Shown here: piece after piece, positions 4,188 to 55,571 of the stretch
Layout of the letters: each line of letters begins with the position of its first letter
How positions within the stretch are numbered: the first letter of the stretch is position 1
NCBI GenBank assembly: GCA_028284075.1
Contig: JANQSL010000053.1
Coordinates: forward strand, 4,316-68,315
From: Candidatus Sumerlaeia bacterium
Lineage (GTDB): Bacteria > Sumerlaeota > Sumerlaeia > SLMS01 > JAHLLQ01
DNA: 64,000 nucleotides
Reading direction: 5' to 3'
Made by a program: the position numbers and the translations under genes
The notes under the pieces: model-generated
The model's input: only the letters and a program-made list of their open reading frames with translations
The model's database searches: none
What the model was told of the DNA's origin: nothing

Positions 4188-5732
4188 ATGGGTGGTTCGC
4201 TTGACCGAACAGCTTCATCGGCATCAGAATTGAACGAAGCAACCGCTGACTCACCGGCCAAGAAGGGAAACACTGTCGGTGGTTACGTTATTGGGTCGCC
4301 AGCGCGCTCAGATCGCTTTTTCTACAAGTACAAGGGCTCCCACGCTTCAACGAGAACTTCTGTTTTTATCAAATTGCTACGGACCGAGTGCATCGGGACG
4401 GACTCTGAGTTCGGCAAGGAATTCAACAGGGTTTTGCACCGGTTGAGTTCGCTCAGTCACCCGGGTCTATTGCCGGTTCTGGACAGTGGAACTTTCGGCG
4501 ATCAGTATTATGTCATCGAGCCTGCCATCGATGGGTTTGCCTTGGCTCTTGGTCTGGAAAACGATCACTTTCTCGATGAAGACAAGATCAGAATTTTTCG
4601 TCAGCTTTCTGACGCAGTGGAAGGACTCCATTCGGAAGGTGTGGTTTATGGCGACCTTCATCCGAATGCGATTTTTATCACAACGGATGATTCGGTTCGT
4701 TGTGGCGGATATGGCATTTCACCTCTGATCGATTCGATCGGACAGTCTCCGGCCCGTTTGAATGAAGAGCATCGAAGATTCTGTGCTCCCGAGGTTTTGG
4801 CTGGTGAGCATGCCACTGTCCGATCTGATGTGTTTTCACTGACTGCTCTCTTTGCCTGTTTGCTTTTAGGCAAGGAGGCCTGGGACAAGTCGGACAGCCA
4901 TCTGTCTCAGATTATTCTCGTGCCGGATGTTCTCGAGTGCCTGAAGAAGGGAATGGCCCGGTCGCCGGAAGACAGATACGCGAGCGTCAGCGAGTTCTCG
5001 ACGGCTTTTTTTCAAAGATACACCAAGCACACATCAGTCGTTGTGCCGGACGATCCCACAACAAGACATCACGTTGAAGAAAACGAGAAGCCGGGACTGA
5101 ACAAGAAGGCCGCTTTGATTCAGGGAACAGCGCTCTTCCTCGGCGCAGCCGCTATTTTGGCCGGAGTTGTGGTTGTTCGCGAAAAGAAAATTGAGGAAGC
5201 GAAACGCGCACGGGCAGAGGCTGAACCCGCTCCAATCGCTGAACCGACCATGCCTCCTCAGTTTGACGTACCTGAGGAGAGGCCCACTCCGACACCGGTC
5301 CCAACGGCTACTCCGACCCCGACCCCAACTCCCGTAATGGCTACGCCGACCCCCGCGGTTCCCGGGAGCACGAACGCCTGGCTGGCCAGAGTGGATGAAT
5401 GGCCGGGGCACTTTCGCATCGCAGTCGGAATGCCAGGGTCGGTTCCGTGGACGTACCCCGCGATCGTGGTTTTTGATGATCTCAAGCCAGCCACCCGCGA
5501 GGCCGTTTATAATCTCTATCGTTCCGTCGAAGGTGGACAGCTCTTGTCGGGTGTTGTTCGTATTGTCGATCTGCCTCAGGAGGCCAATTCGATTGAGTCT
5601 GATTACGAGATCACTCGACCCGAAATTCTGTTTATCGATCCATCGGGTAAAGTTCATGCACGCATGCCGGTGACAGTGGAAGGGGCACGCTTTAGCGATG
5701 CGCTGAAGTCGTTTGTCTCTTCATCCGATTAA
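4188..5732 (+). CDS. Membrane-spanning eukaryotic-like Ser/Thr protein kinase homolog, probable pseudokinase, with Pro-Thr linker and C-terminal extracytoplasmic TlpA-like thioredoxin-fold domain lacking CxxC
   Basis: Kinase-fold motifs: beta3 Lys (SVFIKLL), an alphaC segment ending in L-HPGL, YYVIEP hinge, catalytic loop YGDLHPNAIF (HRD Arg lost, catalytic-loop Lys replaced by His), no DFG (CGGYG in its place), APE plus SDVFSLTALF. One TM helix (ALFLGAAAILAGVVVV) follows. Then a PT-rich linker (PTPTPVPTATPTPTPTP). The C-terminal domain carries the thioredoxin-fold landmark RPEILFIDPSGKV (cf. TlpA TPTTFLIDRDGKI) but no Cys pair. GAGAG RBS precedes the ATG. Confidence 0.7.
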   Translation: MGGSLDRTASSASELNEATADSPAKKGNTVGGYVIGSPARSDRFFYKYKGSHASTRTSVFIKLLRTECIGTDSEFGKEFNRVLHRLSSLSHPGLLPVLDSGTFGDQYYVIEPAIDGFALALGLENDHFLDEDKIRIFRQLSDAVEGLHSEGVVYGDLHPNAIFITTDDSVRCGGYGISPLIDSIGQSPARLNEEHRRFCAPEVLAGEHATVRSDVFSLTALFACLLLGKEAWDKSDSHLSQIILVPDVLECLKKGMARSPEDRYASVSEFSTAFFQRYTKHTSVVVPDDPTTRHHVEENEKPGLNKKAALIQGTALFLGAAAILAGVVVVREKKIEEAKRARAEAEPAPIAEPTMPPQFDVPEERPTPTPVPTATPTPTPTPVMATPTPAVPGSTNAWLARVDEWPGHFRIAVGMPGSVPWTYPAIVVFDDLKPATREAVYNLYRSVEGGQLLSGVVRIVDLPQEANSIESDYEITRPEILFIDPSGKVHARMPVTVEGARFSDALKSFVSSSD

Positions 5733-8433: not shown

Positions 8434-11400
8434 TTATTCGCAGGGAGCGAAGGTTGTGGAACTGACTCGGACCACGCGATTGCGGAAACGGATGAACGAT
8501 ATGTTTGTCAGTGTGTCCACGCCGTCGTTTCCAACAAGATCGGTGACGGTCAGCGACCCGTCGGCATTTTGGCAAATCGAGTAGTTCTGGATGTTGCTGT
8601 AGTAGATGACCTTGTCGCGGTCGGCAACCGGGCCGCCGATCAGAGTGTCATCGCCTTCTCCGCCGATGAGCGTGTCTCGTCCTTCGCCGCCGTCAAGGAT
8701 GTCGTTCCCCTGTCCACCGGCAAGGAGGTCTCTGCCGGCATAACCAAAGACCTGGTCGTCACCCTCGTCGCCATCGAGTAACAGATCAAAACTCGCGGTG
8801 CCGTGGATAATGTCGTTACCGGCTCCGCCAAGGATGGCTGTTGCGAATCCGACTGCATCAGCACCTCCGGCGTCCAGGATGTCGTTGCCGCCAAGACCGA
8901 AAATGACGTCGCCAAGACCCGGGTTCGCGGAAGGGGTTTCGCTTGCGCTAAGAATCACGTTGTCGGTTTCGGAACCGATGATGATGTCGCCGCCTTTTGC
9001 GCGGCCGATTACGTTTTCCACTCCGGAGATGATGTCGTAGCCAAGAGAATGGCCGATGGCTTCTCCATCGACGAGGCTGACAACCACTGGCCTGGTGAGA
9101 GCCGAGTAGTCGAGGGTATCGATGCCGTCACCCGCATCGATAATGTCGTCGCCACGTTCTGACTTCGGTCCCGGATCCGGAAGGATGCGGTCATTACCGC
9201 CACTGGCGATGATTTCGTCGTCACCGGCGCCGCCAACGATGAGTTCATCGCAGGCCGTGCCGATCAGGAGGTCATCTGATTCGGTTCCGATAATATCGAG
9301 ACCGTCGCAATCGACGACTTCAGCCTTCCAGGGTGTTTCGGGGAAGGTTGAAATACCGTCCCACGCAATGGCGAGGTCGTCGAAGTAGTCAAGAGGACCC
9401 ATGGCCGTGTGGTGGAAGGGAGACTGGCCTGAGAAACCGAGCTGACGCGAAATGTCGACCTGCGTCACGATATCCGTTCCGGCCCGGAAGGTGTCGAGGG
9501 CGACTCCGAGGAGGCGGTCGCCTGTGTAGGCGGCACGATGTTCTGCGGCTCGAGCCGTGAATTCAGATATGCTGGAAGTGTAGATCTGAGGAAGTACCGC
9601 ATCGACAACACGGTTGCTCATCCATGTTGGCCAGTCCTGATAGTTGAAGTTAATGGCGTCGTCAAAGCGTCCGATGGGGAACGCAAGCAAGAGGGCGTCG
9701 GGATCGAGCCCGGTGATGGTTGAGTAGATGAGCTGCATTGCAGCGGTGTTTTGTTCACGACGGAACTGTTGCCAGTCGAGATCGAAGGGATCCGGAATTT
9801 CGGTCTTGCCCGTGAGGCGGTTGAATTCCGCGATCACGTCGGGATGGTATCCAAAGTCGCCCTCGGTCCGGTCGAAACGTGTGTCCGGGTAGCGCTGACG
9901 ATCAATGAAGATACCGTCGATGTCATAGTTCATTACGATGTCCGCGCAAATGTTGGCGTTGTAGAGGCGAACTTCAGGAAGTCCCGGGTCGAGCCAGATG
10001 CCGTCAGGATCCTCAGCGGTATTTTGAACCACGGGGTTTCCGTTGTTCCACTCGTAGGTGATCCATTCCGGATGAAGGTTGATGACGTGATTCGGGCGTG
10101 CGTCGGTATCAGCCCCGTCCGTGACAAGGTTTGTGTTCACGTAAGCAAAGACCTTCAGGCCTGCGGCGTGACCACGGGTGACGAATTCATGAAGGACGTC
10201 CACATCGCCAGCGAGAGGATTACGTGGCTCATCGTTCGGGAATGTTGCGTCGGTTTTGTTGGGGAAGTAGGTGGCGTCGCCGCGGTAACGCGTGTGGACA
10301 GCGATGGCGTTGTAACGCCTGCGGGCGGCGTCATTGACGTAGCTTTGGATTGTGCCAACGTCGTCGATACCAGGGTCAAAGACGAGGAAGACGGCGACGC
10401 GCATTTCAGGATCGTCAATCGGGGGCGGTCCGGGAAGCTCGCGGATTCGAACGGCATCCGCCAGAACCACGCGTCCCGCGGGCTCGCTTGCAGCCGCGTC
10501 CAGGGTGATGTTGAAGGGGCCGGCGTCGAGTTGATATTCACCAAGGACAACCCACGTCAGGTTATTGATGCGCTGGTCAGTGGTCGCGACGACAGTGCCG
10601 TCGGTTGTGGAGATTTCATAAGTCGCAACGGCAGCACGGTTGGAACCGGAACGATACTGAACGGCAACTTCGTAGAAGCCGCTCTCGGGAATATTGCCGG
10701 TCCACGTTGCCGTGTTCGGGAACTGTGTGGCGGCAAACTGATCGGTACCTCCATTGAAGCCAGGGGTGCCGCTGGTGGTCCAGCTGCCGGTGGTCGTGTA
10801 AACGGCGGGGCCGTCGTCATTGTCGAGGACAAGTTCGAAGGGAGGAGGTTCGACTTCGATGCCGCGGAGAACGATTGAGTCCACGGTCATGAAACTGCCA
10901 CTCCAGAGCGCGGAGTTGCTTCCCCACGTTCCACTCTCCACATCTGTTGAGAGGGCGATGAGGAGATCATCGCCAGCTGAGGCCACGAAGTTGCCCGTAA
11001 TCACCGTTTGAGTGTCGTTGGCCGTATCGTCACCGGGTGTAAGGCCAATGTAGGTGCCTGTCGTGGTCAGGCCGGGAAGGTTGCCGGCCGCGTCGCGGTG
11101 AACAGCTTCAGCTCCCGTCGCGACTCCGACCGAGTAGGCTCGAATGCCGTCCGGGTTTCCTGCGCTTTCGTCGACGTCCATGTTGATTTCGACCCGGTAG
11201 GTGCCATCGCCGGGGACAACGCCTTCATAGATGGCATAAACACCGTTGCCGAATCCGCCGTCGGTAATCCGCATTGCCGTGCTTCCGTCCAGCGTTGATG
11301 CACTTGGCGTCCCGAAGGTCGACGGTGTTGTGTCATACCAGGTGTTGAAATCCCCGCTGTTGGGGCTGTTGACGGCCACCACGCCACCGTCGAAGTTGTC

Positions 11401-12087
11401 GACGATGATTTCATCCGTGGGGGGAGGAGGTGCGACGTCTTTCAGCGTAATGTTGTCGACGAGCACAAAATTCCCGGACCACGTGGATGAACCGGCGTTC
11501 CAGCCGCCGGTCTGTACGTCGGTCCCAAGACCGATGAGAATGCTGTCACCAGCCTGTGCGCTGAATGTACCCGTCGTCAGGGTTTCAGTCGGGTTTGCGG
11601 TATCATCGCCGGCGGTAAGGCCGGAGTAGTTTGCCACGATAGAGAGCGGAGCCACGGCACTGGGATTGAGGCCGCGATGAACCGCGTCCGCTCCCACGGC
11701 CACGCCGACCTGGTATGCACTGAAGCCTGTCGGAGAACCGGACTCATCGACATCCATGTCGAGTTCGATCTGATAATCCCCGTCGGCGGGGACTACTCCG
11801 TCATAGATAATGTAAACACCATTCGTGAAACCACCGTCATCGATTCTCATCGCCGCGCTCCCCTCAAGGGTGGACGCCGATGGAGTTCCGAAGGTTGAGT
11901 TCGATGCATCATACCAGACGCCTGGTACACCAGATCCCTCAGGGTGGTTGACAGCTGTCACACCACCACTGAAGTCATCCAGCACCACGTCGGCTGAGAC
12001 AACGGACGCAACCAAGGCGAGGGTTCCGCTCACGAGGTTTCGTACGACTCTCCGTGTTGCCGCACATCGTGAAACGAAGTTCCGCAT
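8434..12087 (-). CDS. Very large secreted multidomain protein: two tandem-duplicated beta-sandwich (CBM-like) domains, a third beta domain, a GHL10/UPF0748 (YddW-like) glycoside-hydrolase-like core, and C-terminal hemolysin-type (RTX) Ca-binding repeats
   Basis: 1217 aa with a signal peptide. Two roughly 185-aa repeats share about 60% identity (GGVTAVNHPEGSG...FGTPSASTLEGSAAMRIDDGGFTNGVY vs GGVVAVNSPNSGD...FGTPSASTLDGSTAMRITDGGFGNGVY). Middle region MRVAVFLVFDPGID...KVFAYVNTNLV...DGIFIDRQRYP resembles the GHL10 TIM-barrel family. Repeated GGxGxDxx nonapeptides near the C-terminus (GGAGDDEII, GGAGNDIIHG, GGQGNDILDGGEGRDTLIGGEGDDTLIGG). Confidence 0.75.
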   Translation of the reverse strand: MRNFVSRCAATRRVVRNLVSGTLALVASVVSADVVLDDFSGGVTAVNHPEGSGVPGVWYDASNSTFGTPSASTLEGSAAMRIDDGGFTNGVYIIYDGVVPADGDYQIELDMDVDESGSPTGFSAYQVGVAVGADAVHRGLNPSAVAPLSIVANYSGLTAGDDTANPTETLTTGTFSAQAGDSILIGLGTDVQTGGWNAGSSTWSGNFVLVDNITLKDVAPPPPTDEIIVDNFDGGVVAVNSPNSGDFNTWYDTTPSTFGTPSASTLDGSTAMRITDGGFGNGVYAIYEGVVPGDGTYRVEINMDVDESAGNPDGIRAYSVGVATGAEAVHRDAAGNLPGLTTTGTYIGLTPGDDTANDTQTVITGNFVASAGDDLLIALSTDVESGTWGSNSALWSGSFMTVDSIVLRGIEVEPPPFELVLDNDDGPAVYTTTGSWTTSGTPGFNGGTDQFAATQFPNTATWTGNIPESGFYEVAVQYRSGSNRAAVATYEISTTDGTVVATTDQRINNLTWVVLGEYQLDAGPFNITLDAAASEPAGRVVLADAVRIRELPGPPPIDDPEMRVAVFLVFDPGIDDVGTIQSYVNDAARRRYNAIAVHTRYRGDATYFPNKTDATFPNDEPRNPLAGDVDVLHEFVTRGHAAGLKVFAYVNTNLVTDGADTDARPNHVINLHPEWITYEWNNGNPVVQNTAEDPDGIWLDPGLPEVRLYNANICADIVMNYDIDGIFIDRQRYPDTRFDRTEGDFGYHPDVIAEFNRLTGKTEIPDPFDLDWQQFRREQNTAAMQLIYSTITGLDPDALLLAFPIGRFDDAINFNYQDWPTWMSNRVVDAVLPQIYTSSISEFTARAAEHRAAYTGDRLLGVALDTFRAGTDIVTQVDISRQLGFSGQSPFHHTAMGPLDYFDDLAIAWDGISTFPETPWKAEVVDCDGLDIIGTESDDLLIGTACDELIVGGAGDDEIIASGGNDRILPDPGPKSERGDDIIDAGDGIDTLDYSALTRPVVVSLVDGEAIGHSLGYDIISGVENVIGRAKGGDIIIGSETDNVILSASETPSANPGLGDVIFGLGGNDILDAGGADAVGFATAILGGAGNDIIHGTASFDLLLDGDEGDDQVFGYAGRDLLAGGQGNDILDGGEGRDTLIGGEGDDTLIGGPVADRDKVIYYSNIQNYSICQNADGSLTVTDLVGNDGVDTLTNISFIRFRNRVVRVSSTTFAPCE

Positions 12088-12639: not shown

Positions 12640-13884
12640 ATGCGATTTCGCACTTTTTTTGTTCTCCCATTCCTGGGAATTCACTTAGGACTCCCGGCAG
12701 CCCTAACAGTCGAGTTTGTCAATAATCAGCTCACTGTTACCTCGGACACGGATTCGGATACCATTACACTGACGGAGGCGGGCGGCCAATTGCTGCTGAA
12801 CGGCGGCAATCCTGGCGGGATACCGATTACCGCAGCGGATGTCACGCGTATTGAAGTGGAGGGCGGTGAAGGAAACGACACAATTGATGTGAGTGCGCTG
12901 GATGAAACTTCAGGTTTGGTTTCCCTGTTCAACATCACTCTGAACGGCGGTTCCGGCAGTGATGAGATTACAGGTTCCGCACTTGGCAACAGCATCAGTG
13001 GAGGCCCGGGCGACGACACGCTTTCCGGGGGATCGGAAGGAGACGGTTTTTCATGGAACCGGGGTGATGGTGCGGACATGATCGATGCAGGGGGTGGGAG
13101 CGACTCGTTTGGTGCAAACGCGCTGACGGATGCCGCGCAGTTCGCGTTTCTCAAGGACGGCGGGGATGTTCTTCTACAGAGCAATGAAGGGGGCGTGGTG
13201 GAAACGAGAATTGCGGGTGTCGAGACGCTCAACCTTGGGGACGGTCCGGGCGATGACATGTTTGTCGTGGGCGACCTGGAGGGGACCGGAGTGACGCGCG
13301 TCTTGATGAACCTCGGTGAGGGGATGAACGTGGTTGATGCATCCGATCATGGAGGAGAGATTCTCTGTTCCCATATGATCAGCAGCGGATCGCTTCAATT
13401 TACAGGTGCGGCTGGTGCATTTCACACCGTTCAGATTAATAACGCTTTCACGAACGACCCACTGGAAAGATCCGTAACGAACGATTCCGGTTTTGTTCGG
13501 ATCGACACTGAGGGGCCGGATGTCAAGACAGTGCGTTGTCGTGATGTCAGTGCGGCAATCGTTCGTCTCCAGAATGGAGATGATGTTGTTACGGTTTCCG
13601 ATCTTGGTGACGATACGGGTGTGACCCGCCTGACCGTTTTTGGGGACGACGGCGATGATTCGGTGACCACTCGGCCTCAGGCGATTACGTTGCAGGACCT
13701 GCGGGGAGAGGGTGAGGATTCCGTCGATACTCTGGTGATTGATATGCAGAACATGTTCTTTGAGGATGACGGGTTCACGATTACACCGCTCGGTCAGGCG
13801 GACATTCTCTACAGTGGCTGGGAGTCGATGGATATTCAAAACCTGCCGCCCCCGGGTGATCAGTGGGCGGTTACAGGGAACTGA
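12640..13884 (+). CDS. Secreted hemolysin-type Ca-binding repeat protein (about 415 aa)
   Basis: Start taken at internal M (MRFRTFFVLPFLGIHLGLPAALT signal peptide). GGxGxD-type repeats: GGSGSDEITG, GGPGDDTLSGG, GGGSDSFG. Asp/Gly-rich throughout. Confidence 0.6.
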   Translation: MRFRTFFVLPFLGIHLGLPAALTVEFVNNQLTVTSDTDSDTITLTEAGGQLLLNGGNPGGIPITAADVTRIEVEGGEGNDTIDVSALDETSGLVSLFNITLNGGSGSDEITGSALGNSISGGPGDDTLSGGSEGDGFSWNRGDGADMIDAGGGSDSFGANALTDAAQFAFLKDGGDVLLQSNEGGVVETRIAGVETLNLGDGPGDDMFVVGDLEGTGVTRVLMNLGEGMNVVDASDHGGEILCSHMISSGSLQFTGAAGAFHTVQINNAFTNDPLERSVTNDSGFVRIDTEGPDVKTVRCRDVSAAIVRLQNGDDVVTVSDLGDDTGVTRLTVFGDDGDDSVTTRPQAITLQDLRGEGEDSVDTLVIDMQNMFFEDDGFTITPLGQADILYSGWESMDIQNLPPPGDQWAVTGN

Positions 13885-14087: not shown

Positions 14088-17000
14088 ATGATGCAGCGGC
14101 GTCGTTTCGTTTTTTTTCTTCTGGTTTTGGTCTCGGGATTTGCGGGTGTTGGTCATGCGGACTCAATCCGCATGAAAAACGGCAACTTTGTGGAGGGTCG
14201 CATTGTTGAGGAGGACGATGAGAGAATCATCATCGATACGGGCGGAGTCAAACTGACGATTCGGCAGGATGAGATTGAGCGTCTGGAACGCAACATCCCC
14301 GTTCAGTTTCTTCAGAACAACGCAGAGAAGGGTTTGAATCGAGCGGCGTCGCTGATGGAGATGGGGCGGAGTGAGGAAGCACGTCTTCTGTTGGATGGCA
14401 TATTACTCGAGTTCGACAAGGTTGAAGAACAGTACAAAGGTGAAGATGCGTTTCCGCAGACGCTTGAAGATCTTCGGTCTCGCATGAGGCAGTTGCAGCG
14501 CAGCGCTTTGCCGCCGGATCCGTCAATGGAGCAGGCGGAACGGCTCTTCGAGCAGGCTCTCGATGAAATCGATCACATTCGTTATGAGGAGGCGTTTCCC
14601 CTTCTGGAGCAGGCTGTGGCTCTGGTGCCGGGCCGGTCTGACATTCGACTGCGGCTGGCGGAGACCGCGGAACGGACGGATCGGCCGCGCGTGGCGATTG
14701 AAGCGTATCAGAAGATCGTCAGGGACCAGCCGAATGTATACTACGAGCAGGTTTCCCTTCAATTGCTGAAGCTTCTGGAGGCTCGCGCCGAGCAACTGAT
14801 GAAAGAACGGAGGATGAGTGCTGCGGTGGCAGCTTATCGCGAAATCCTTCTGTTGAAGGGGGAAAAAGAGGACGATGCGGCGGACTTGACGGAGTACCTG
14901 GCACGGAAGACGAGGCAGGAGGCCCAGCCGGAAGACGAAGTGTTTATGGAGGTTTATCGATACGCGGATTCGAATGACCTTGTGGACCTCGCCTTTGCCG
15001 CTGTCACGAAGGCGGCCGACTTGAGGCCGGACGACCATGAGATTCAGTCGCTCCGAAAACAAACGGGCTTTCTTGCACAACTCAAGGAGTACGTTGAAGA
15101 CGGCAATCTGGAAGCCGCAGTGGAGGTTATGCGCGACGCGCGGGAGGAGTTGCAGGATACCACAGACTTCGCGGAGAAAGCTCAGCGGGTCACAGAGGGA
15201 ATCGAACGAGCGTTGGATGCAGAGCGACTGATTGCAGAAGCGCAGGAAGCGTTCGACAAGGAGGATTACAGTCATGCGGCGGAACTGGCGGAACGGGTGG
15301 CGACGGACTATTCCGAACTTGCTTCGGCGGAGCAGGCGCGAGCCCTGCTTTCAAACATCGAGTTTGAGAAGCCGATGAAGGAGGGACTTGCGGAGGGAAT
15401 CGCGCATATTGAGGAGCGGAGATACGAGGAGGCTGAAAGAGTTTTGGAAGGCCTGAAGGAGAGACCGGGTTTTGACGGAAGCCGATATCGCCCGGAAATT
15501 GAAAGTCTGTTGCGAAGTGTTCCGGACGAGCGGGAAGCGAGTCGTCTCTATGACCTGGCGGGAGTTCTAATCGAGCGTGAGGCGTTCCAGGAAGCAATGA
15601 GGGAGTTGGAAGCTCTGGTGTCACGTTATCCCGATACGGCCGCGGGTGACAAGGCGCAGAGGTGGCTGACGAAGTACCGCTCGCGAATCACCATGGATGC
15701 GCTGAAGACGCGGCAACTCGACTCGAACTCGTTTCTGGCGTTCGCCGATCCGTCGCTTTGGCGCGCTACGGAGCATGGGGGATCGTTGCAAACCCGGAAG
15801 GTGTCACCTGTTCCAGGGGAAGCAAAAACGGAAGCGTGGAACAAGTTCAACGAATTACACGAGCTGGACGGGTTGAGTCATCAGGAGGAACGACTGAGTT
15901 TGCTGGTCGTTCTGGGCCTGCCCGTACTTGTAGTCCTCGGTCTGGTTGGAGTGGGGGCCTGGAAACTGATCGCGCCGGGCCGTGGCAGATTGCCGCATGA
16001 GGCCGTAAATTCGGAGGAACTCACCGAGTGTGGTATCTGTGGTGTACCCATGAAGGAGGGAGAGCTGGTTTGCCCGAATTGCGGAGAGTCCGTGGGTGAG
16101 GATGAAATCACGGATGAGCGGCGGACTTCAAGTATCAAAAAGGCGAACTTCGACCCGTGGGATATTCGGGTCCGCGATGCCAGCGCCAACGAGTTTGAAT
16201 CACACTTTCAAAAGGCAAAGGATCTTGCTGAAACCAACGACACGGAAGCGGCAATTGAAGCCTGCAGGCTTGCTTTGCACGAAGATCCGCTTCGGAAGAA
16301 TGCTTACAGCCTGCTTGCGGATTTATATGAACGGGTGAACAGGCGCGAGGAGGCGGCAAAGTGTTACCGGGAGATCCTCCTGATCGATCCGGCGGACGTG
16401 GAAACAAGGCGGAAAATCGAGGCGACACTGAGCCTGACGGACAAACCTCTGGAAATGATACGCGTGATTACAGGTGTGAGCGTGACTCTCTGGCTTGTGG
16501 TTTACCTGGTTGCCGTCGGTATCGACCCGGGAGGGTGGTTTGTTCGCTTCGGCCTGATGCTCATTGGCACGGCGATCACGATCTTCGGCTGGGTGTTTGT
16601 GCAGAAGCGTCACCGTCCGCTTGTTCACGCCCACCAGAGGCCGGAAATTCGAGGCCATCGTCCTCTGCCGGAGTCACGGTTGTCTTTCAGAGATCAACAC
16701 CGGCAGGCAAAACACATTGCCGAAGGTATTAAAGTTCATACGGGGATCGATGTGCCCGTGCTGTCACCAACCCGAGTGGTTGCGGTTGCTGTCTTGAGCA
16801 TTGTGTTCTTTGGTGCCCTGCTGTATGTTGCCTGGTTGAATAACACGTGGTTCCTGATGGCGATATGGCCGGTCGTGACGGTTCTGTTGTACTTCCTCCT
16901 GGAAGTATTCCCCCGGGCGCAGACGGCTCATGCTCTCCTTCGACACTTCTATGAGGAAACACTGTCACCATGGGTCGATCCGCATCGGCCATTCAATCCG

Positions 17001-17903
17001 AGGAGGACTCCGGCGAAGGGTGAGTTTCAGATTCAGTCACTGGATGAGTTTCCCCTCCGATGGGCTCTGAACCCCAGACCCTATGCGAATACGCGGCAAG
17101 GGGTCCTTGGTTTTTTGCAGGCGACCCTGAACCGGCACTGGGCGTTTCATCGCTTTTACGACTCCGCGCATGTTGTCCGTGACATTGACGTTCCGGTGGC
17201 TATCGGGTCACGCCGGACGATCGTCGTTTTGTGTACACTGCTGGTCGTCGTTATTGTCGCGGGAGCATCCATTGGCTGGAACCGGTTTTCAACGGAGACC
17301 AACTACGAAAACTCAGTGAAGCTTGGCTATGGGTATTTGTTGGATGGGGACGTTGTGCGGGCGCAGACCGAATTCTACCGTGCCTCTCGTCTCAAGCCGG
17401 ACCGGACTGTCCCCCGTCTGTATCTCGCTCATGCAAGCAGTGCCGGAGGGATGAACAACACCGCGGAGAGAGCTTATCGAAAAGCTGCTTCACTGTCACT
17501 TCAGCTGGTGGAGGTCTACAACGACCATGGCAACTTTCTCCAGCGGCAGGGAAGAATTAATGAGGCGGTGCGGCAGTATATGAAGGCGCTTGAGCTGGAG
17601 CCTGGAAATGCGGACGTTCTTAATAATCTGGGCTCGGCTCTGCTGAAGCTGGGCAAACATGACGAGGCTTCTGAGCGCCTTGAAAAATCCGTCGCGCTCC
17701 GGAGGCGCCATCCCCGTGCCTGGACAACACTGGGGCTTGCCTATGAAGGAATGGGCCGATTCGATGACGCTCGAGGAGCTTACGAGAGGGCTGTTGAAGT
17801 GGCTCCGGACGCGGAGTACACGCAGGTTGCGAGAGATCGTTTGAAGGAGGAATCGATCGAGGAACTCAACAAGCCCATCGTGCTGGATCCGGACCGTGTC
17901 TGA
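14088..17903 (+). CDS. Large (about 1270 aa) envelope-spanning TPR protein: signal peptide, N-terminal beta module, helical/TPR region, TM helix, double CxxC zinc ribbon, polytopic TM block, C-terminal TPR repeats
   Basis: Start at MMQRRRF with AGGAGG 6 nt upstream. Hydrophobic stretches LSLLVVLGLPVLVVLGLVGVGAW and several more between aa 800 and 1000. Zinc ribbon CGICGVPMKEGELVCPNCG. C-terminal TPR consensus (AYSLLADLYERVNRREEAAKCYREIL...; NNLGSALLKLGKHDEASERLEKSVAL...; WTTLGLAYEGMGRFDDARGAYERAVEVAP). The N-terminal module DSIRMKNGNFVEGRIVEEDDERIIIDTGG is shared with the 42009 gene. Confidence 0.7.
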   Translation: MMQRRRFVFFLLVLVSGFAGVGHADSIRMKNGNFVEGRIVEEDDERIIIDTGGVKLTIRQDEIERLERNIPVQFLQNNAEKGLNRAASLMEMGRSEEARLLLDGILLEFDKVEEQYKGEDAFPQTLEDLRSRMRQLQRSALPPDPSMEQAERLFEQALDEIDHIRYEEAFPLLEQAVALVPGRSDIRLRLAETAERTDRPRVAIEAYQKIVRDQPNVYYEQVSLQLLKLLEARAEQLMKERRMSAAVAAYREILLLKGEKEDDAADLTEYLARKTRQEAQPEDEVFMEVYRYADSNDLVDLAFAAVTKAADLRPDDHEIQSLRKQTGFLAQLKEYVEDGNLEAAVEVMRDAREELQDTTDFAEKAQRVTEGIERALDAERLIAEAQEAFDKEDYSHAAELAERVATDYSELASAEQARALLSNIEFEKPMKEGLAEGIAHIEERRYEEAERVLEGLKERPGFDGSRYRPEIESLLRSVPDEREASRLYDLAGVLIEREAFQEAMRELEALVSRYPDTAAGDKAQRWLTKYRSRITMDALKTRQLDSNSFLAFADPSLWRATEHGGSLQTRKVSPVPGEAKTEAWNKFNELHELDGLSHQEERLSLLVVLGLPVLVVLGLVGVGAWKLIAPGRGRLPHEAVNSEELTECGICGVPMKEGELVCPNCGESVGEDEITDERRTSSIKKANFDPWDIRVRDASANEFESHFQKAKDLAETNDTEAAIEACRLALHEDPLRKNAYSLLADLYERVNRREEAAKCYREILLIDPADVETRRKIEATLSLTDKPLEMIRVITGVSVTLWLVVYLVAVGIDPGGWFVRFGLMLIGTAITIFGWVFVQKRHRPLVHAHQRPEIRGHRPLPESRLSFRDQHRQAKHIAEGIKVHTGIDVPVLSPTRVVAVAVLSIVFFGALLYVAWLNNTWFLMAIWPVVTVLLYFLLEVFPRAQTAHALLRHFYEETLSPWVDPHRPFNPRRTPAKGEFQIQSLDEFPLRWALNPRPYANTRQGVLGFLQATLNRHWAFHRFYDSAHVVRDIDVPVAIGSRRTIVVLCTLLVVVIVAGASIGWNRFSTETNYENSVKLGYGYLLDGDVVRAQTEFYRASRLKPDRTVPRLYLAHASSAGGMNNTAERAYRKAASLSLQLVEVYNDHGNFLQRQGRINEAVRQYMKALELEPGNADVLNNLGSALLKLGKHDEASERLEKSVALRRRHPRAWTTLGLAYEGMGRFDDARGAYERAVEVAPDAEYTQVARDRLKEESIEELNKPIVLDPDRV

Positions 17904-17951: not shown

Positions 17952-19082
17952 ATGCGTGTCCTTTACCTCAGTCCCTCGAACCGCCTGCTTGGTGCTCGCA
18001 AGAGCCTGATCGATCTGGTGACCGCCATTCAACGGATCGGCGTTGAGGCGATGGTGGTTTGTCCCGGTGATGGCGATCTGGCGCGGGAGTTAAGGTCCCT
18101 GGATGTTGAGACACGCAAGGTGCGCCATTATCCCTGGCGAAAAGCCATCGGTCACTTGCAGGCTCGTTTTCTTCAACTCCCGGAGCTTCGGCGAATCGTG
18201 CAGGACTTTCGTCCTGATGTGATTCATGCGAACGAGTATCATATCGTTCCGCAGGGCGTTGAGTGTGCCGCGGGCCGCCAGCGTGTTCCCACTGCCGTTC
18301 ATGTTCGAAATCTGCCGGCTCCATCGCATCTGAGAAAGTACCGGCTGGATGAATGCGATGCGGTCATCACTGTGTCGGGTGCTTTGAAAGACTACTTTGC
18401 GGGGCGTGTGACTGAATCGAAGGTCACGCTGGTTCACAACGGAATCGATCTCTCCCGCTTTCATACAACGGACCGGAGACGGGTTCCAATAGACCGGACG
18501 TCCGGCTGGCCGGAGAAGGCTGTGGTGTTTGGTCTTCTCGGCCTTGTCAACGAGCGGAAGAATCAGAAAATTGCTCTGGAGGCGCTGCGCAGGGCTGTGA
18601 GCCTTGGAACGGATGCGCGTTTGCTTCTCGCTGGAGATGCCTTCAAGTCGTCTGTTCAGTACGGCGAAGAGTTGAGAGAATTGATTGTGAAGCTTGGTCT
18701 TGAGGATCGGGTTGTCTGGCTTCCCTTTCAGGATGAGGTATTGCCGTTGTACCGGGCGGTTGATGTAAACCTGCTGATTTCCCGTGAGGAAGGATTTGGA
18801 CGAACGATTATTGAGGCGGGGGCGATGGGGCGGCCAAGCATCGGCACCGATGTCGGAGGTATCCCGGACATTATTGTTCCCGGTGAAACGGGCTTTCTTG
18901 TTCCGGTGAACGATGCGGAATCGCTGGCAGGAGCAATGGGCGAGATGTCCGACAAGGCAAAGGCGGATGCCATGGGAATGAGTGCGGCGCAGCGTGCATT
19001 GAACCACTTCAGCATTGAATCGACCGCCCGCGGCGTCATGGGTGTCTACGAGCGCATTGCGGGTCAGGAGGCCACCGTGTAG
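17952..19082 (+). CDS. Glycosyltransferase family 4 (GT-B, retaining)
   Basis: C-terminal GT1/GT4 signature EGFGRTIIEAGAMGRPSIGTDVGGIPDIIVPGETGFLV. Length 376 aa. Confidence 0.85.
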   Translation: MRVLYLSPSNRLLGARKSLIDLVTAIQRIGVEAMVVCPGDGDLARELRSLDVETRKVRHYPWRKAIGHLQARFLQLPELRRIVQDFRPDVIHANEYHIVPQGVECAAGRQRVPTAVHVRNLPAPSHLRKYRLDECDAVITVSGALKDYFAGRVTESKVTLVHNGIDLSRFHTTDRRRVPIDRTSGWPEKAVVFGLLGLVNERKNQKIALEALRRAVSLGTDARLLLAGDAFKSSVQYGEELRELIVKLGLEDRVVWLPFQDEVLPLYRAVDVNLLISREEGFGRTIIEAGAMGRPSIGTDVGGIPDIIVPGETGFLVPVNDAESLAGAMGEMSDKAKADAMGMSAAQRALNHFSIESTARGVMGVYERIAGQEATV

Positions 19083-42008: not shown

Positions 42009-44702
42009 ATGAATCTTGCGGCACGACGCCTCAGCGCCTGCCTGCGGACCGCTCTGTTCTTCCTGGCCATAGGCTTCCCTCTCGCGGCCCTGGCTCAGTC
42101 CGACGTAGTCGTGCTAAAGAATGGCACGCAAATTACCGGCACGATAACCACCCAGGATGGTGGTGAGGTCCGGATCATTGTCGGCGGGATCGAGCAGATC
42201 CACTACATGACAAACGTCAGGGAAGTGATTCGCGGGGATGCTTCTGAGATTGGTCCCGGCGAGCCTGCGGCACAGGAGGCCCTCAAGCGATTCCGGGCAA
42301 ACCAGTTTATCGATGCCTGGGAACAGTACGTTGAGATGGATGCGGCCGAGGGCGAGGCGTGGCGGCGTCACGAGGACCGAATCAAGGCAACGCTGCAACG
42401 CCTGACCGGTCAGATGGCACAGGAGGCCCTGGCCGGTGGCGATGGTGATGCACTGGATCAACTTAACCGCATATTGAATGAGGATGGCACGAGAAACCTT
42501 GTCAGCAAGGTCTACCCGGAGAACCTTGAGCAGTTCAACAACCTCATTCGACGACTTGCAGGTACAGTGCATTTTCTGCGAGGCAAACGAGCCCGCCTGG
42601 AGAGCCGTGACCCGGAAGCTGCCGAACTCGAGTTCCGCGAAGCGGAGACTCATCTTCAACGTGGCGACCCGTATTATGCGGAATTGATGTTTCACTATGG
42701 GCATGTTATTCTGGATCAGGCCGAGGCTTTATGGGATCGTGCACAGGACGGCGCCCGGCTTCCATCTGACGTTCCGGCTCTTCAGGAGCTGGATCGCCGC
42801 TTTTACGAAGCCAGCAGCAAGTGGTCCGAAGTCAGGACCATTCTGAGCGGTAACACCTTTCCCGAGGCTGAAAGCAGAGCGATCCGAAGTTTCTTCAACG
42901 AAATTCAGAGTCGGCAGACCGCTGTTACAACAGGACGAGAGGCCATCAGTGCGAAGATTGTTCAGATAGAGGCGGCCGCTCGACCTCAGCCAACGCCGAT
43001 TCCAACCCCCACTCCTGTTCCAACACCTGTTCCGACACCATCTCCAACTCCATCGATTACCGAGGATCCAAAGATTTGGTTTAGTGAGAAGTTCGGTGAC
43101 GTGCTGCCTGAAGGACTAAAGGACGCCAGTATTGGTCAGTACGCAATTTATGTCGCGGTTTTTATCGTCGTCTTTTGGATGATTCCGTGGGCGGTTTTCA
43201 AGATCCTGCGGAGACGTATCGACATTATTGCCGATCAGTGGGCAAAGCGGGTCTGGTTCCTTGGTCCAGTCACTCTCATCGGATACATGATATCGTTCAT
43301 TGCCGTACGTCCCAAACGCATCAGAGTGAAGAAGTCGAAGAATCCGTGTCCGCATTGCGGGTTCGGGCTGGATGATATCATGTCCTACGAAAATCTGGAC
43401 TTTTATCACTGCCCGAACTGTGGTGGTGAGATTGAACCTGTTCATTCAATGGAAGACTATATCACTGTCCTCGCCAACAGCCTCGCAACCGACGCCGAGA
43501 AAGTGACTCTTGGTATTGTTTCGATGGCAAGCTTTGTCGGCCAGGACGTCATGCAGCGCCTCGTACGCGCTGTGCTGACACATTCAATCCGGTCTCGCGC
43601 CTCAGACGTTCACATCGAACCCCAGCAACAGGCCGTTTCCATTCGCCATCGAGTCGATGGTGTGATGACGGAAATGACGCGTCTGCCGGCGTCCATTGGA
43701 CCCGCGATCGTTTCGGCCATCAAGGTCAACGCCAGCATGGACATTTCCGAGAAACGAAAGCCGCAGGATGGCGCCTGGCAGATTATGGTGGACGATGCGG
43801 ATATTGATCTCCGTATCGCGTCGTCGCCGTCGACAGTAGGGGAAACCATCACAATTCGTATTCTTGACTTCCGTTCGATCCAGATGGAGACAAAGAATCT
43901 GGGTATGACCAAGTCGGGGCGGGACGTCTTCGAGAAAGCCATCCGCGAACCACACGGTTTGATTCTGGTTACCGGCCCCACCGGTTCCGGCAAGACAACA
44001 TCTCTGTATGTGGCTCTGCGAAGTATCACGACGGGTGACAAGAATATCATCTCGATCGAGGATCCGATCGAGTTCAGGCTCGCCGGTGTGAATCAGATTC
44101 AAGTGAATCCGGCGGCAGGTCTGACGTTCGCTTCGGGATTGAGGTCCATTTTGCGTCAGGACCCCGATGTTATCATGGTCGGCGAGATTCGTGACCAGGA
44201 AACGGCGGAAATCGCGGTCAATGCGGCTCAAACCGGTCACCTGGTTTTTTCGACTCTTCACACAATCGATGCGGCAGCGACAGTAACGCGTCTCTACGAT
44301 TTGGGGATCAGTCCTCGTCAGTTCGCCGACGCACTTTCAATCATCGTCGCACAACGGTTGATTCGCCTTGTTTGCCCGGATTGCAAGACGTCTGACAAAC
44401 CGGACAAGGCCGTATTGCGTGAGATTGGAATTCGCGAAGAGGATGAACCGAACTATCCGTTCATGATTGGCCAGGGATGTCGTTCCTGTAACAGCATGGG
44501 CTACCTTGGACGCTCCGGAATTTTTGAAATTCTCGCTCCGAACGCCGCGATTCGAACAGCGCTGGAATCAGGCACGCAATCAACTCAGGAGCTTCGCGAG
44601 CTTGCCATTGCCAACGGCATGAGAGCACTGCGTGAAGAAGCTCTCGTGCTTCTGAAGCAGGGCATGACTTCGGCGGAAGAGGTTCTTCGCGTCACAAAGT
44701 AA
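42009..44702 (+). CDS. Fusion protein: signal peptide + extracytoplasmic N-terminal module + Pro-Thr linker + TM segment(s) + CxxC-CxxC zinc ribbon + GspE/PilB-type type II secretion / type IV pilus ATPase (GspE N1/N2 + ATPase + tetracysteine)
   Basis: N-terminal MNLAARRLSACLRTALFFLAIGFPLAALAQS. Module VVLKNGTQITGTITTQDGGEVRIIVGG resembles the 14088 protein. PT linker PQPTPIPTPTPVPTPVPTPSPTPS. TM YAIYVAVFIVVFWMIPWAVF. Zinc ribbon CPHCG...CPNCGG. GspE-N (SDVHIEP...RHRVDG), Walker A GLILVTGPTGSGKTTSLYVAL, Asp/His boxes (IISIEDPIEF, IMVGEIRD), tetracysteine C..C......C..C, and C-terminal GRSGIFEIL. Confidence 0.8.
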   Translation: MNLAARRLSACLRTALFFLAIGFPLAALAQSDVVVLKNGTQITGTITTQDGGEVRIIVGGIEQIHYMTNVREVIRGDASEIGPGEPAAQEALKRFRANQFIDAWEQYVEMDAAEGEAWRRHEDRIKATLQRLTGQMAQEALAGGDGDALDQLNRILNEDGTRNLVSKVYPENLEQFNNLIRRLAGTVHFLRGKRARLESRDPEAAELEFREAETHLQRGDPYYAELMFHYGHVILDQAEALWDRAQDGARLPSDVPALQELDRRFYEASSKWSEVRTILSGNTFPEAESRAIRSFFNEIQSRQTAVTTGREAISAKIVQIEAAARPQPTPIPTPTPVPTPVPTPSPTPSITEDPKIWFSEKFGDVLPEGLKDASIGQYAIYVAVFIVVFWMIPWAVFKILRRRIDIIADQWAKRVWFLGPVTLIGYMISFIAVRPKRIRVKKSKNPCPHCGFGLDDIMSYENLDFYHCPNCGGEIEPVHSMEDYITVLANSLATDAEKVTLGIVSMASFVGQDVMQRLVRAVLTHSIRSRASDVHIEPQQQAVSIRHRVDGVMTEMTRLPASIGPAIVSAIKVNASMDISEKRKPQDGAWQIMVDDADIDLRIASSPSTVGETITIRILDFRSIQMETKNLGMTKSGRDVFEKAIREPHGLILVTGPTGSGKTTSLYVALRSITTGDKNIISIEDPIEFRLAGVNQIQVNPAAGLTFASGLRSILRQDPDVIMVGEIRDQETAEIAVNAAQTGHLVFSTLHTIDAAATVTRLYDLGISPRQFADALSIIVAQRLIRLVCPDCKTSDKPDKAVLREIGIREEDEPNYPFMIGQGCRSCNSMGYLGRSGIFEILAPNAAIRTALESGTQSTQELRELAIANGMRALREEALVLLKQGMTSAEEVLRVTK

Positions 44703-44722
44703 ATGGTTCCGGACGGAGAGAG

Positions 44723-46279
44723 ATGGGGGCAAACGGCACAGCGCTTCAGAGGCACCGGAAACGCTGGCAGCGTGCCCACATGGTTTTTGGTGAGTCGTTG
44801 CGAAGCAACCTGCCCGTGGCTGAAACCGACAACGTGGCGGAAGACTGCAGCGTTGACGAGCGTCTTGTCCAGTGTATCTGGTTCGACCAGCTACTGGATA
44901 CCGAAGCGCTCGTTACGGCCAGCGGCAAGCGTTTGGAAATTATAGAGCCCGGGCGCTGGAACACCGGGCGCGGTCCTGATTTTCTCGATGCAAAGGTGAA
45001 GTTGGCGGGAGAGACTCTGGCTGGAGACATCGAGATTCACGTTCGGTCCAATGGCTGGACCGCCCATGCTCATCATCAGGATTATGAATACAACCGAGTC
45101 GTTCTGCATGTTTGTCTGAACGCACACGATGACAGGCCTTACGAGGACAAACAAAACGGTGAACGACTTGAGCGTCTTGTGCTCGGCAGCCTGTTGCAGC
45201 CGGATCTGAGTACGATTCGCCGCACGCTCAATGTGGATGATTATCCTTACGGGCGCCCGGCAGACACCGGCCTGTGTCATCGAAACCTGTTGTTGTTGTC
45301 AGAAGAGCGCCTGACACGTTTTCTTGAGACCGCAGGAAGGGCACGAATTGAAGAAAAAGTGCGCCGTTACAAGGCCCAGACGGCCTCGGCGGACGTTTCT
45401 CAGCTGCTCTATCAGTCGGTTATGGTCGGACAGGGTTACAAATCCAACAAGACGCTTTACTTTCTGCTGAGCAAGCGAGCCCCTGTATTTGAAATGCTGG
45501 ACTATGCAGCCGATGTGATGCCGGGGGAACGCCGCGATCTCTATCTTTCAATATTGCTTCACGTGGCGCAGCTTTTTCCATCGCAGGGCGATTTGTTCGA
45601 TGGCGCGGATGACGAGGCGCGTGAATATGCAGACCATTTGATTCGTCTCTGGAAGCCGGTTCGCGGATTCTATGCTGATCGCATCATGCCGCCAACACGA
45701 CGCTGGTTCTCAGGCATGCGCCCGCCCGGATTTCCGGGGCGCCGCCTGTCAGCGGTGTCCGTATTGCTGGATCGACTGAACAACAATGACTCCCCTCTTT
45801 TTGAAAGCCTTTCCACCATGGTGAGAGAAGGCGTTCCAGACGGCGACCAGCCAAAGGTCTGGCGCGACTTTGTGAAGGAATGCACGGCCCTGCTGATAGT
45901 AGAGGACGGTTCCGCTTATTTCACGACGCACTTTACCCTCGGCGGCAAACCCTCAAGGCCACAGGCGCTCCTCGGAGAGCCTGCGGCTCGAAGCCTGTTC
46001 TTCAACGTGTTTTTGCCGCTCATGATCCTAAGCGGCGGCGAGCGGGTCCAAGACAATGCCTGGCGGGTTATTGAGCGTTTCCCCGCACTGCCAGGGAATT
46101 CGGTGACGGAATTCATGCAGCGACGCCTGTTTGCCGAGTGCGGACTTGAAAAAACATTGCTGCGACGAGAACTGATGCAGCAGGCATTGTTCAAGATTTT
46201 TCATGACTGTTGTGCGGGGAATGAGCGAACCTGCGATTCATGTACGTTCCTGAATCCTCCTTTCGCGCCGACAGGGTAG
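44723..46279 (+). CDS. DUF2851-family protein (function unknown)
   Basis: Conserved block CIWFDQLL...LEIIEPGRWNTGRGPDF.DA...GDIEIHVRSNGWTAHAHHQD.EYNRVVLHV typical of DUF2851. An alternative start at 44780 is possible. Confidence 0.6.
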   Translation: MGANGTALQRHRKRWQRAHMVFGESLRSNLPVAETDNVAEDCSVDERLVQCIWFDQLLDTEALVTASGKRLEIIEPGRWNTGRGPDFLDAKVKLAGETLAGDIEIHVRSNGWTAHAHHQDYEYNRVVLHVCLNAHDDRPYEDKQNGERLERLVLGSLLQPDLSTIRRTLNVDDYPYGRPADTGLCHRNLLLLSEERLTRFLETAGRARIEEKVRRYKAQTASADVSQLLYQSVMVGQGYKSNKTLYFLLSKRAPVFEMLDYAADVMPGERRDLYLSILLHVAQLFPSQGDLFDGADDEAREYADHLIRLWKPVRGFYADRIMPPTRRWFSGMRPPGFPGRRLSAVSVLLDRLNNNDSPLFESLSTMVREGVPDGDQPKVWRDFVKECTALLIVEDGSAYFTTHFTLGGKPSRPQALLGEPAARSLFFNVFLPLMILSGGERVQDNAWRVIERFPALPGNSVTEFMQRRLFAECGLEKTLLRRELMQQALFKIFHDCCAGNERTCDSCTFLNPPFAPTG

Positions 46280-49118: not shown

Positions 49119-50078
49119 TCAAGCCGAAACCCCTCTTCCGGCCGTGGCCAGCCGGGCAGCCTTCCTGAATCGCTCGATCATTCGTCGCTCCGTGAATCGA
49201 CTCCTGACATGGCGTCGACCCGCAAGTCCGACGGTTTTCAGTGGGTGGGATTCCGGTCGGCTGAGGAAGTTGCTCCATTCGCGGCGGTGGACCAGGAAGC
49301 CGGTCTGGCCATCATGGATCAGTTCCGGAATTCCTCCGACCGGGGTGGCGGCGACTGGTACACCACGAGACATGGCCTCGAGAAGGACCCCGGGGAAACC
49401 CTCACTGGCGCTGGGCAGGGCCAGCAAATCAAGAGATCGAAGGAGTGGTCCGGCCGACACATAGCCTGTGCAGACGATCCCTTCGGCTTCGGCCTCTTTT
49501 CTGAGTGCCGGGGAGATTCTGCCCGCGAACACAAGCGTGCCCGCCGGGCGGCAATGCCGCCAGACGTCGAGCAGAAAACGGTGTCCTTTCATGGGGCGTT
49601 CGTTGGCAAGCAGTCCAATGACAGGTGGCTGGAGGCCTGTCAGGAGTGGCTGCTCGCCCGGAGGCGGTTCCGGAACGCCATTGTGGATGACGACACCTCG
49701 GTTTCCGCCAAGCCCTTTACAAAAGTTCGCAACCCAGAACCTCACTCGTCGATCAGCGAGGCGGTAAACCAGTGTTCGGGTTCCCAGGAAATCGATCTCC
49801 CCTCGAATGTTTCCGACAAGCGCGGGGCCTCTGGCCGGCCAGGCGGCACAGGCTATCAAGTGAGATCGTGCGCCATAGCAAAACACCACTTCCGGCCGGA
49901 AAGCACGGATTGCCCTGAGAGCCCCGAGATACCCGCGCAGGCCGTCGGGATAAGCTCCAAGCTTCTCCAGGGATATGTGATGAAACTCCGGAACGTTCCG
50001 GCAGAGACGCTTGACGATGGTTTCGGTGCCACCGCCCTGTTCAAGGACCGTCAGGTGGAGTGTTCGCGGGCCCGTCAT
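49119..50078 (-). CDS. Glycosyltransferase family 4
   Basis: GT4 C-terminal signature EGFPGVLLEAMSRGVPVAATPVGGIPELIHDGQTGFLV. Start moved to the M overlapping the asnB stop (ATGA). The track ORF starts at GTG 50126. Confidence 0.75.
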   Translation of the reverse strand: MTGPRTLHLTVLEQGGGTETIVKRLCRNVPEFHHISLEKLGAYPDGLRGYLGALRAIRAFRPEVVFCYGARSHLIACAAWPARGPALVGNIRGEIDFLGTRTLVYRLADRRVRFWVANFCKGLGGNRGVVIHNGVPEPPPGEQPLLTGLQPPVIGLLANERPMKGHRFLLDVWRHCRPAGTLVFAGRISPALRKEAEAEGIVCTGYVSAGPLLRSLDLLALPSASEGFPGVLLEAMSRGVPVAATPVGGIPELIHDGQTGFLVHRREWSNFLSRPESHPLKTVGLAGRRHVRSRFTERRMIERFRKAARLATAGRGVSA

Positions 50079-51928: not shown

Positions 51929-51970
51929 GCACTCACGGAACGGCCACGAGCGGGACAGGGACAACGGCAA

Positions 51971-55479: not shown

Positions 55480-55571
55480 GGACGCCCACTCCCTGTTGGA
55501 TCTGGATGGCATTCCCGCCCGGGAATGCGATTTTACAGCTCAGTTGAAGTTTGTCTTTCGCACAATGAATT

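Follow-up and report, generated by a model that had tools for sequence, protein, structure and literature searches.

The two genes and their common plan

The DNA considered here is a chromosomal stretch of 64,000 nucleotides from a Candidatus Sumerlaeia bacterium (contig JANQSL010000053.1, referred to in its whole length as the window). Its subject is one gene, T, together with a second gene, G, which encodes a GspE/PilB-type ATPase fusion and serves as the comparison partner of T (Table 1). A preliminary description had proposed that the two proteins follow a single four-part plan and carry a common periplasmic sensor head, wired in G to a secretion ATPase and in T to a polytopic membrane block with TPR (tetratricopeptide repeat) scaffolds, as parts of an uncatalogued signalling or trans-envelope system. 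The plan itself is real, as every part is present in both proteins: a signal peptide, a beta module of ~47 amino acids (aa), a helical region, a membrane segment and a CxxC...CxxC zinc ribbon follow one another in the same order. The beta modules, referred to below as the heads, are homologous. However, the head is a widespread, already catalogued building block of exported proteins that is not private to T and G, and there is no special tie between the two heads.

Table 1. Features of genes T and G, in positions of the window.
Feature	Position	Strand	Basis
Gene T, 1271 aa	14088..17903	+	ATG at 14088, stop codon ends 17903; open reading frame (ORF) and translation
T: signal-peptide-like N-terminus, aa 1-24	14088..14159	+	RRR, hydrophobic core, GHA before D; sequence and hydropathy scan; cleavage inferred
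T: small beta-barrel head (predicted), aa 25-71	14160..14300	+	NF047433 match; generic-module profile; AlphaFold2 (AF2) model; best Foldseek match Hfq
T: long helical, TPR-like region, predicted periplasmic, aa 72-600	14301..15887	+	Weak TPR-like matches; helical character inferred
T: first membrane helix, aa 602-628, then K, R, R	15891..15971	+	Hydropathy scan; conserved across family
T: juxtamembrane zinc ribbon, C648, C651, C662, C665	16029..16088	+	Four cysteines invariant (n=5 sequences); aligns with G ribbon
T: central TPR pair, predicted cytoplasmic, aa ~700-780	16185..16427	+	TPR_7 at aa 739-768; BatC-type TPR at aa 732-778; side inferred from helix count
T: polytopic block, five membrane helices	16449..17273	+	aa ~790-812, 818-839, 890-912, 919-942, 1040-1062; hydropathy scan
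T: best-conserved stretch of the family, predicted cytoplasmic loop, His/Arg/Trp-rich, aa 943-1035	16914..17192	+	Family alignment
T: C-terminal TPR array, predicted periplasmic, aa ~1075-1250	17310..17837	+	TPR_19, TPR_2, TPR_8, TPR_1, E 1e-24 to 1e-29
Gene G, GspE/PilB-type ATPase fusion, 897 aa	42009..44702	+	ORF location; T2SSE 407 bits
G: small beta-barrel head (predicted), aa 32-78	42102..42242	+	NF047433 match; generic-module profile; aligns with T head
G: two conserved hydrophobic segments, aa 376-399 and 415-433	43134..43307	+	Hydropathy scan; family conservation
G: juxtamembrane zinc ribbon, C447, C450, C468, C471	43347..43421	+	Cysteines invariant (n=4); preceded by RPKRIRVKKSK; weak Pfam zinc-ribbon matches

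Homology of the heads

Compared as a single pair by BLASTP, the heads of T and G show weak similarity (E 0.023), and thin family profiles of two and three sequences give a T-G probability of 58%. Full-length family profiles of five and four sequences raise this to 96.4% (E 1.3e-9) over 112 columns, all of them at the N-terminus. Head-only family profiles reach an hhalign probability of 97.8% (E 9.8e-13) over all 47 columns, while the reversed control stays at 2.3%. The likeness of the two heads asserted in the preliminary description is thereby confirmed.

A profile built from 95 modules of other proteins, from which the T and G families had been removed, recognizes T with 58.6 bits and G with 43.0 bits, and all eight members of the two families with 39-59 bits, in a check that is not fully independent. 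The same profile finds no further match among the 671 ORF segments of the window (next best E 0.26), and a motif scan in all six frames also confines the LKNG-type head to the ORFs of T and G. In addition, T and G each match, independently of one another, the NCBIfam model NF047433 and the N-terminus of NF041881 (PTPDL_fam).

That the heads of T and G are specifically related to each other is not borne out. When 100 modules were ranked by BLOSUM62 score over the 47 aligned columns, the head of G came 100th of 100 for T, and the head of T came 98th of 100 for G. The head of a distant relative of G (P0014) lies closer, with 40% identity to the T head over 80 aa, and for this protein T ranks 7th of 100.

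Distribution and classification of the head module

An exhaustive search of 1.84 billion cluster representatives with a shallow head profile (four sequences, 47 columns) retrieved 328 proteins at E <= 1e-3. The detailed statistics given here describe the best 149 of these 328 carriers (148 for counts of position). The first copy of the module starts at a median residue of 23.5, and by residue 60 in 137 of 148 proteins; a hydrophobic stretch lies upstream of it in 128 of these 137. Carriers are between 63 and 1802 aa long (median 256), 43 of them have at least two copies of the module, and an internal membrane-like segment is present in just 17. The partner domains come from 106 Pfam families, most commonly DUF2059 (23 carriers), TPR (~11), HEAT (7), DUF5684 (7) and trypsin-like proteases (4), and 29 of the 149 carriers match the TIGR02603 putative heme-binding (CxxCH) domain. 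The C-terminal architectures of T and G, a polytopic TPR giant and a membrane-anchored secretion ATPase, are absent from the other carriers. The preliminary description had conceded that its proposal would fall if the module turned out to be a ubiquitous motif adjacent to signal peptides, and this is what the search revealed; a private sensor head common to T and G is contradicted by the number of carriers, by their position counts and by the variety of their partners.

The best catalogue entry for the module is NF047433, the "LA_0442/LA_0875 N-terminal domain" of Leptospira (Lepto_7_Nterm), which is matched by 145 of the 149 carriers (E <= 1e-3, best 1.7e-26). Like the heads of T and G, it is a module of ~50-60 aa that stands straight after a signal peptide, and it shares with them the pattern D/E-T-I-x-L-K-N-G-x-x-I-E-G-x-I ... 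G ... I-x-x-I. The match extends over aa 9-65 of T (model positions 2-57 of 63) and aa 18-64 of G (model positions 1-50 of 63). Related N-termini are found in NF041881 (PTPDL family), NF047503 (LB_137 family) and NF047624 (LIC_13076 family), the first two of which are matched by 130 and 102 of the 149 carriers, respectively. The T and G heads differ from most members of the NF047433 family in lacking the "LTYY.DEI" signature. The T/G head is a divergent new member of this catalogued but uncharacterized domain family. Pfam has no family for it, and the isolated module gives only weak SH3-like matches there (E ~0.01); a literature search for LA_0442, LA_0875, LB_137 or PTPDL returned nothing relevant.

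In four carriers from outside the window (P0010, P0015, P0022, P0061) the LKNG hairpin recurs in long tandem arrays, with five or six partial copies per protein. P0010 has six such copies at intervals of ~103 aa, which are also recognized by the LSM and Hfq models of Pfam. The LKNG hairpin may by itself be able to form repeats.

Predicted fold of the head

Modelled with AF2 from an alignment of 101 sequences, the head is all-beta, with a predicted local distance difference test score (pLDDT) of 86.8 and six strands (residues 2-5, 10-12, 14-18, 22-26, 31-35 and 39-43). The model predicts a five-stranded, strongly bent antiparallel barrel that is Sm/Hfq- or SH3-like. Hfq leads the Foldseek matches of this model in the PDB, with a TM-score of 0.77 and a root-mean-square deviation of 0.7 A over 40 residues; the E-values of the Hfq matches (7e-3 to 5e-2) are modest, the domain being small. 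Sequence and profile searches of the PDB gave marginal matches only, all of them to Sm D1, Hfq, LSm or a designed SH3-like barrel (E 0.03-1 for Sm D1 and Hfq). At the level of sequence, the head thus faintly recalls Sm D1, Hfq and RimP-SH3. The helix N-terminal to the barrel that is a trait of LSM and Hfq proteins is missing from the head model, the module beginning at the predicted signal-peptide cleavage site. The modules of T and G have no LSM or Hfq match in Pfam, and only 7 of the 149 carriers match LSM.

The near-invariant positions of the head (L5, K6, G8, G13, I15 and G29) look like turn and core residues, a pattern that would fit an adaptor better than a specific ligand pocket. The head model also matches the "nose" domain of Kustd1711, a Kuenenia cytochrome c (PDB 7zs0), with a TM-score of 0.66. 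The authors of that structure call the nose domain Hfq-like but acidic, and its role unknown (PMC11791136). As in the nose domain, the T/G head is exported and, judged from its residues, acidic rather than basic. Its export or periplasmic location and its net acidity argue against RNA binding.

Zinc ribbons and helical regions

The ribbon is the second part of the plan in which T and G resemble each other. Over the stretch that begins where the membrane helix ends and takes in the ribbon, the two families align with a probability of 92% (E 5e-7 to 8e-7), and reversed controls give 0.1-0.3%. For the C-terminal tetracysteine site of G, the probability is 10% when it is aligned with the T ribbon and 1% with the G ribbon. 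In contrast, the helical regions between head and membrane show no similarity (probability 2%) and differ in length, with stalks of ~530 aa in T and ~250 aa in G. Of the plan beyond the head, the ribbon region aligns and the helical regions do not. The sequence of a membrane helix, basic residues and a ribbon, as preliminarily described, is found in both proteins, but in G a second conserved hydrophobic segment stands before the ribbon. The likeness in plan of T and G most likely arises because two common modules, a barrel head and a membrane-proximal ribbon, occur in the same order around non-homologous helical regions.

Protein T and its family

T is a protein of the inner membrane; it is conserved and lineage-specific, occurring in Sumerlaeota and related metagenomic bacteria. 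The public record of the identical protein gives 1271 aa in the Logan assembly and 1270 aa in the NCBI assembly. Its relatives are encoded at locus L002 (67% identity, N-terminus cut by the contig end) or represented by P0125 (42%), P0074 (41%) and P0117 (38%), and the family is collinear across ~1250-1290 aa and conserved end to end. In every member of the T and G families the head and the membrane helices are retained, together with all four cysteines of the ribbon. Both families are found in the window genome and in the Sumerlaeota metagenome-assembled genome (MAG) OFTM212 (GCA_021772755.1), the source of the closest loci to both genes, and both are rare, with ~4 T clusters and a single G cluster among the 1.84 billion cluster representatives.

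The helical region of T, which is hydrophilic as far as about aa 600, is weakly matched by TPR_18, YbgF and BamD at ~aa 480-525 and by LapB at aa 149-254. A hydropathy scan counts six membrane helices past the signal peptide, and the loops at aa 840-888 and 943-1037 carry positive charge. By this helix count and the positive-inside rule, the C-terminal TPRs should be periplasmic, not cytoplasmic. The output of T described preliminarily, a cytoplasmic effector made up of a polytopic membrane block and TPR scaffolds, is accordingly right as to its components, the block and the TPRs both being present, and doubtful as to the side of the membrane on which the C-terminal TPRs are predicted to lie.

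Conservation in the T family peaks in the loop at aa 943-1035, outside all of the parts shared with G. Its motifs read LRHxYEET.SPWVDPHRPF ... PLRWAL ... LNRHW.FHRFY ... VRD, and the invariant residues of the family alignment include H953, E956, E957, D964-F969, P989-A993, N1015-W1018, H1021-Y1024 and R1031-D1032. The loop has no match in Pfam, NCBIfam or the PDB, and a profile search of the PDB with the whole membrane block gave no relevant match. AF2 modelled this block from four sequences with helices at pLDDT ~80, a mean of 59 and values below 50 in the conserved loop.

Protein G and its family

G begins with a signal-peptide-like N-terminus (aa 1-31, with ALA before QS). Its head is followed by a helical, hydrophilic region (aa 79-325) and a Pro/Thr linker (aa ~326-348). 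Between the first membrane helix and the zinc ribbon lies the second hydrophobic segment, aa 415-433 (VWFLGPVTLIGYMISFIAV). Two full membrane passes would place the ATPase outside the cell, and this segment is therefore probably re-entrant or interfacial, or else the topology of G is unusual.

The C-terminal part of G is a complete T2SSE ATPase domain (PF00437, 407.4 bits at aa 512-894, above the Pfam cutoff) with its tetracysteine site. G does not reach the equivalog cutoffs of PilB (TIGR02538, 471.8 versus 675.65 bits) or GspE (TIGR02533, 461.1 versus 630.25 bits), and the match to both models is limited to its C-terminal ~380 aa. Full-length orthologues of G share 80% (P0002), 65% (P0003) and 49% (P0014) identity with it.

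Comparison with known systems

In its complete T2SSE domain and C-terminal tetracysteine site, G is like the GspE and PilB ATPases. The usual N-terminal domains of these proteins are replaced in G, which is why it scores under the two equivalog cutoffs. The type II secretion ATPase receives its membrane link to the periplasm from GspL. In G, such a link is fused to the ATPase itself, and the resemblance to bitopic partners such as GspL or PilN/PilO is one of analogy only. T, for its part, is without any ATPase. Its C-terminal array resembles the TPR scaffolds PilW (98 bits), MamA, PrsT and Tgl, and its stalk weakly resembles YbgF and BamD. However, PilW/PilF, Tgl, BatC, YbgF and BamD are small lipoproteins or soluble proteins, and T is a protein of 1271 aa with six membrane helices. 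The likeness of T to these families is generic to TPR repeats; all scores fall far under the family cutoffs, and the C-terminus reaches 98.1 bits where the equivalog cutoff of TIGR02521 (PilW-type TPR) is 154.

Gene neighbourhoods

T and G are separated by 24 kb in the window and have unrelated neighbours. The linkage of the two genes that a joint system might lead one to expect is not seen, nor do they share conserved neighbours. The remaining genes of the window are housekeeping or envelope genes (GlmS, SecA, MnmC-like, RNase J-like, glycosyltransferases).

In the window and in L002, T is followed by a GT4 glycosyltransferase gene, with a 1.7-kb insertion between the two in L002. Elsewhere the neighbours of the T-family gene are a methyltransferase and a Ser/Thr kinase (L005) or unidentified genes (L006). 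The glycosyltransferase was considered as a functional partner of T and rejected, as L002, the closest relative, is alone in preserving the pairing, which is absent from L005 and L006. G, in contrast, is directly followed by a DUF2851 gene at four of four loci (window 42009-46279, L003 2644-6951, L004 10001-13553, L007 1960-6209), across 49-80% identity of the ATPase, so that the two look like a conserved two-gene unit. No platform (GspF/PilC), pilin or secretin gene is found in the window. Type IV pilus genes have been reported in all Sumerlaeota MAGs studied (PMC8092238).

Ser/Thr kinase genes lie immediately downstream of the T-family gene in L005 (8804-10630), at the locus edge ~8 kb upstream in L006 (1-28) and ~8 kb upstream in the window (4188-5732). 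Another, fused to HSP70/MreB-like and TPR parts, lies near the G-family gene of L007 (7345-11154). The proximity of these kinase genes may be coincidence.

Just upstream of T stands an orphan gene for a protein of 413 aa with only a weak RTX-like match (12643-13884, + strand). It adjoins a gene for a 1217-aa protein that combines a GHL10 glycosyl-hydrolase-like domain, Golvesin_C and RTX calcium-binding repeats (8434-12087, - strand). The glycan genes around T and G (17952-19082, 46284-48113, 49119-50126, 50075-51970 and 61166-63598) encode two PMT/ArnT-like GT-C enzymes, two GT4/GT1 enzymes and an asparagine synthase, which suggests a region rich in envelope-glycan genes. The SecA ORF (52021-55512, - strand) is 1163 aa long, and its Pfam SecA_DEAD domain starts at aa 202; either a long stretch extends the protein at its N-terminus, or the true start codon lies downstream of the one listed.

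Interpretation

The explanation that best accounts for these observations, with a probability of roughly 70%, is that T and G are separate lineage-specific proteins, each carrying a generic exported small barrel and a juxtamembrane ribbon of a common type, and that T is most likely an inner-membrane scaffold. The analysis demonstrates the homology of the heads, the generic spread of the module, its predicted fold and the conservation of the family. For T we infer a topology, an adaptor role of the head and a scaffold role of the whole, in which the protein would span the inner membrane. The barrel would sit at the far end of a ~530-aa periplasmic helical stalk and connect T, as adaptor or anchor, with some other component of the envelope. 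Surfaces for protein binding would be offered by the C-terminal TPR array, likewise periplasmic, and the cytoplasmic face would consist of the zinc ribbon, two TPRs and the strongly conserved His/Arg-rich loop.

Several points weigh against this explanation. With respect to the head, T and G both fall short of the curated cutoff of NF047433 (43 bits), at 28.1 bits (E 1.2e-6) and 22.6 bits (E 6.5e-5), respectively, and the generic modules behind the 95-module profile were first gathered with a profile derived from T and G. With respect to the plan, only P0014 of the G family and P0074, P0117 and P0125 of the T family, among the best 149 carriers, unite the head with both a membrane-like segment in the interior and a CxxC...CxxC motif. 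Because this shared combination is rare, the ribbons resemble each other specifically and both families occur in the same two genomes, there is room for some shared history or, less likely, a shared function. With respect to T itself, the proposed scaffold role is read from domain content, and neither the neighbourhoods of L005 and L006 nor the PDB profile search yielded a partner, a conserved operon or a characterized homologue.

A first alternative is one of ancestry: the N-terminal half, from signal peptide and head through stalk and membrane helix to the ribbon, would have been copied once between the two families within this lineage, after which stalk and head diverged; such a copy need imply no functional pairing. 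Two separate homologous modules in the same order are what such a copy would leave behind, as are a combination unique among the best carriers, a ribbon similarity that stands at 92% where reversed alignments stay below 1% and the C-terminal tetracysteine site of G reaches 10%, and a P0014 head that lies fairly near that of T. The stalks do not fit well with it, given their unequal lengths and lack of detectable similarity, nor do the extra hydrophobic segment and Pro/Thr linker of G, nor the heads of the window, which rank last for each other. Ribbons of the CPxCG type are very common, so that independent recruitment is plausible. A single copying event is an improbable, if tenable, origin of the common plan.

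A second alternative retains the original proposal of a dedicated pair, with one periplasmic input head and alternative outputs, a secretion ATPase or a membrane-plus-TPR block, in an uncatalogued signalling or trans-envelope system. The common order of parts speaks for it, as does the joint occurrence of two rare families in the window genome and OFTM212; moreover, no other family among the best carriers has head, membrane segment and ribbon together. However, the head is generic and catalogued, the heads of T and G resemble each other less than any other pair sampled, their helical regions are not related and the genes lie far apart. Most module carriers lack a membrane segment, and T has no conserved neighbours in its distant relatives, while G keeps DUF2851 instead. 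Nothing points to sensing or signalling, and a dedicated pair is doubtful.

A more elaborate version makes T and G two arms of a Sumerlaeota-specific envelope-spanning machine, in which the Sm-like periplasmic heads would form rings in the manner of Hfq. These rings would match the hexameric GspE-type ATPase, which in G has a membrane anchor and a periplasmic stalk of its own, and T would supply TPR platforms on both sides of the membrane. This idea is a long shot. Three points speak for keeping it in view: T and G share a unique assembly of head, membrane segment and ribbon, their ribbons are specifically similar, and both families occur in the same genomes.

Chance or compositional likeness, with a short beta-hairpin motif (LKNG..I.G.I) common to small barrels of every kind, might seem to account for the weak pairwise BLASTP score and for the presence of the same hairpin motif in eukaryotic Sm D1 (IELKNGTQVHGTITGVD), but it is rejected as highly implausible on the 47-column profile alignment (E 1e-12), the failure of the reversed control, the shared NCBIfam matches and the 95-module profile, which recognizes both heads over the full length of the profile.

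The preferred explanation, that T and G are separate proteins built with common modules, implies that the private shared sensor is not upheld and that there is no case for a new signalling system. The architectures of T and G are unusual, and nothing shows them forming one system. What is of use is, first, an abundant exported small-barrel domain with no Pfam family, whose fold is confidently predicted and which is present in at least 328 clusters; second, two rare lineage-specific architectures, a membrane-anchored GspE-type ATPase and a six-helix TPR protein of 1271 aa; and third, a strongly conserved, predicted cytoplasmic loop of T that has no known relative. If a function is found for the barrel, it would provide an annotation for hundreds of hypothetical exported proteins across several phyla.

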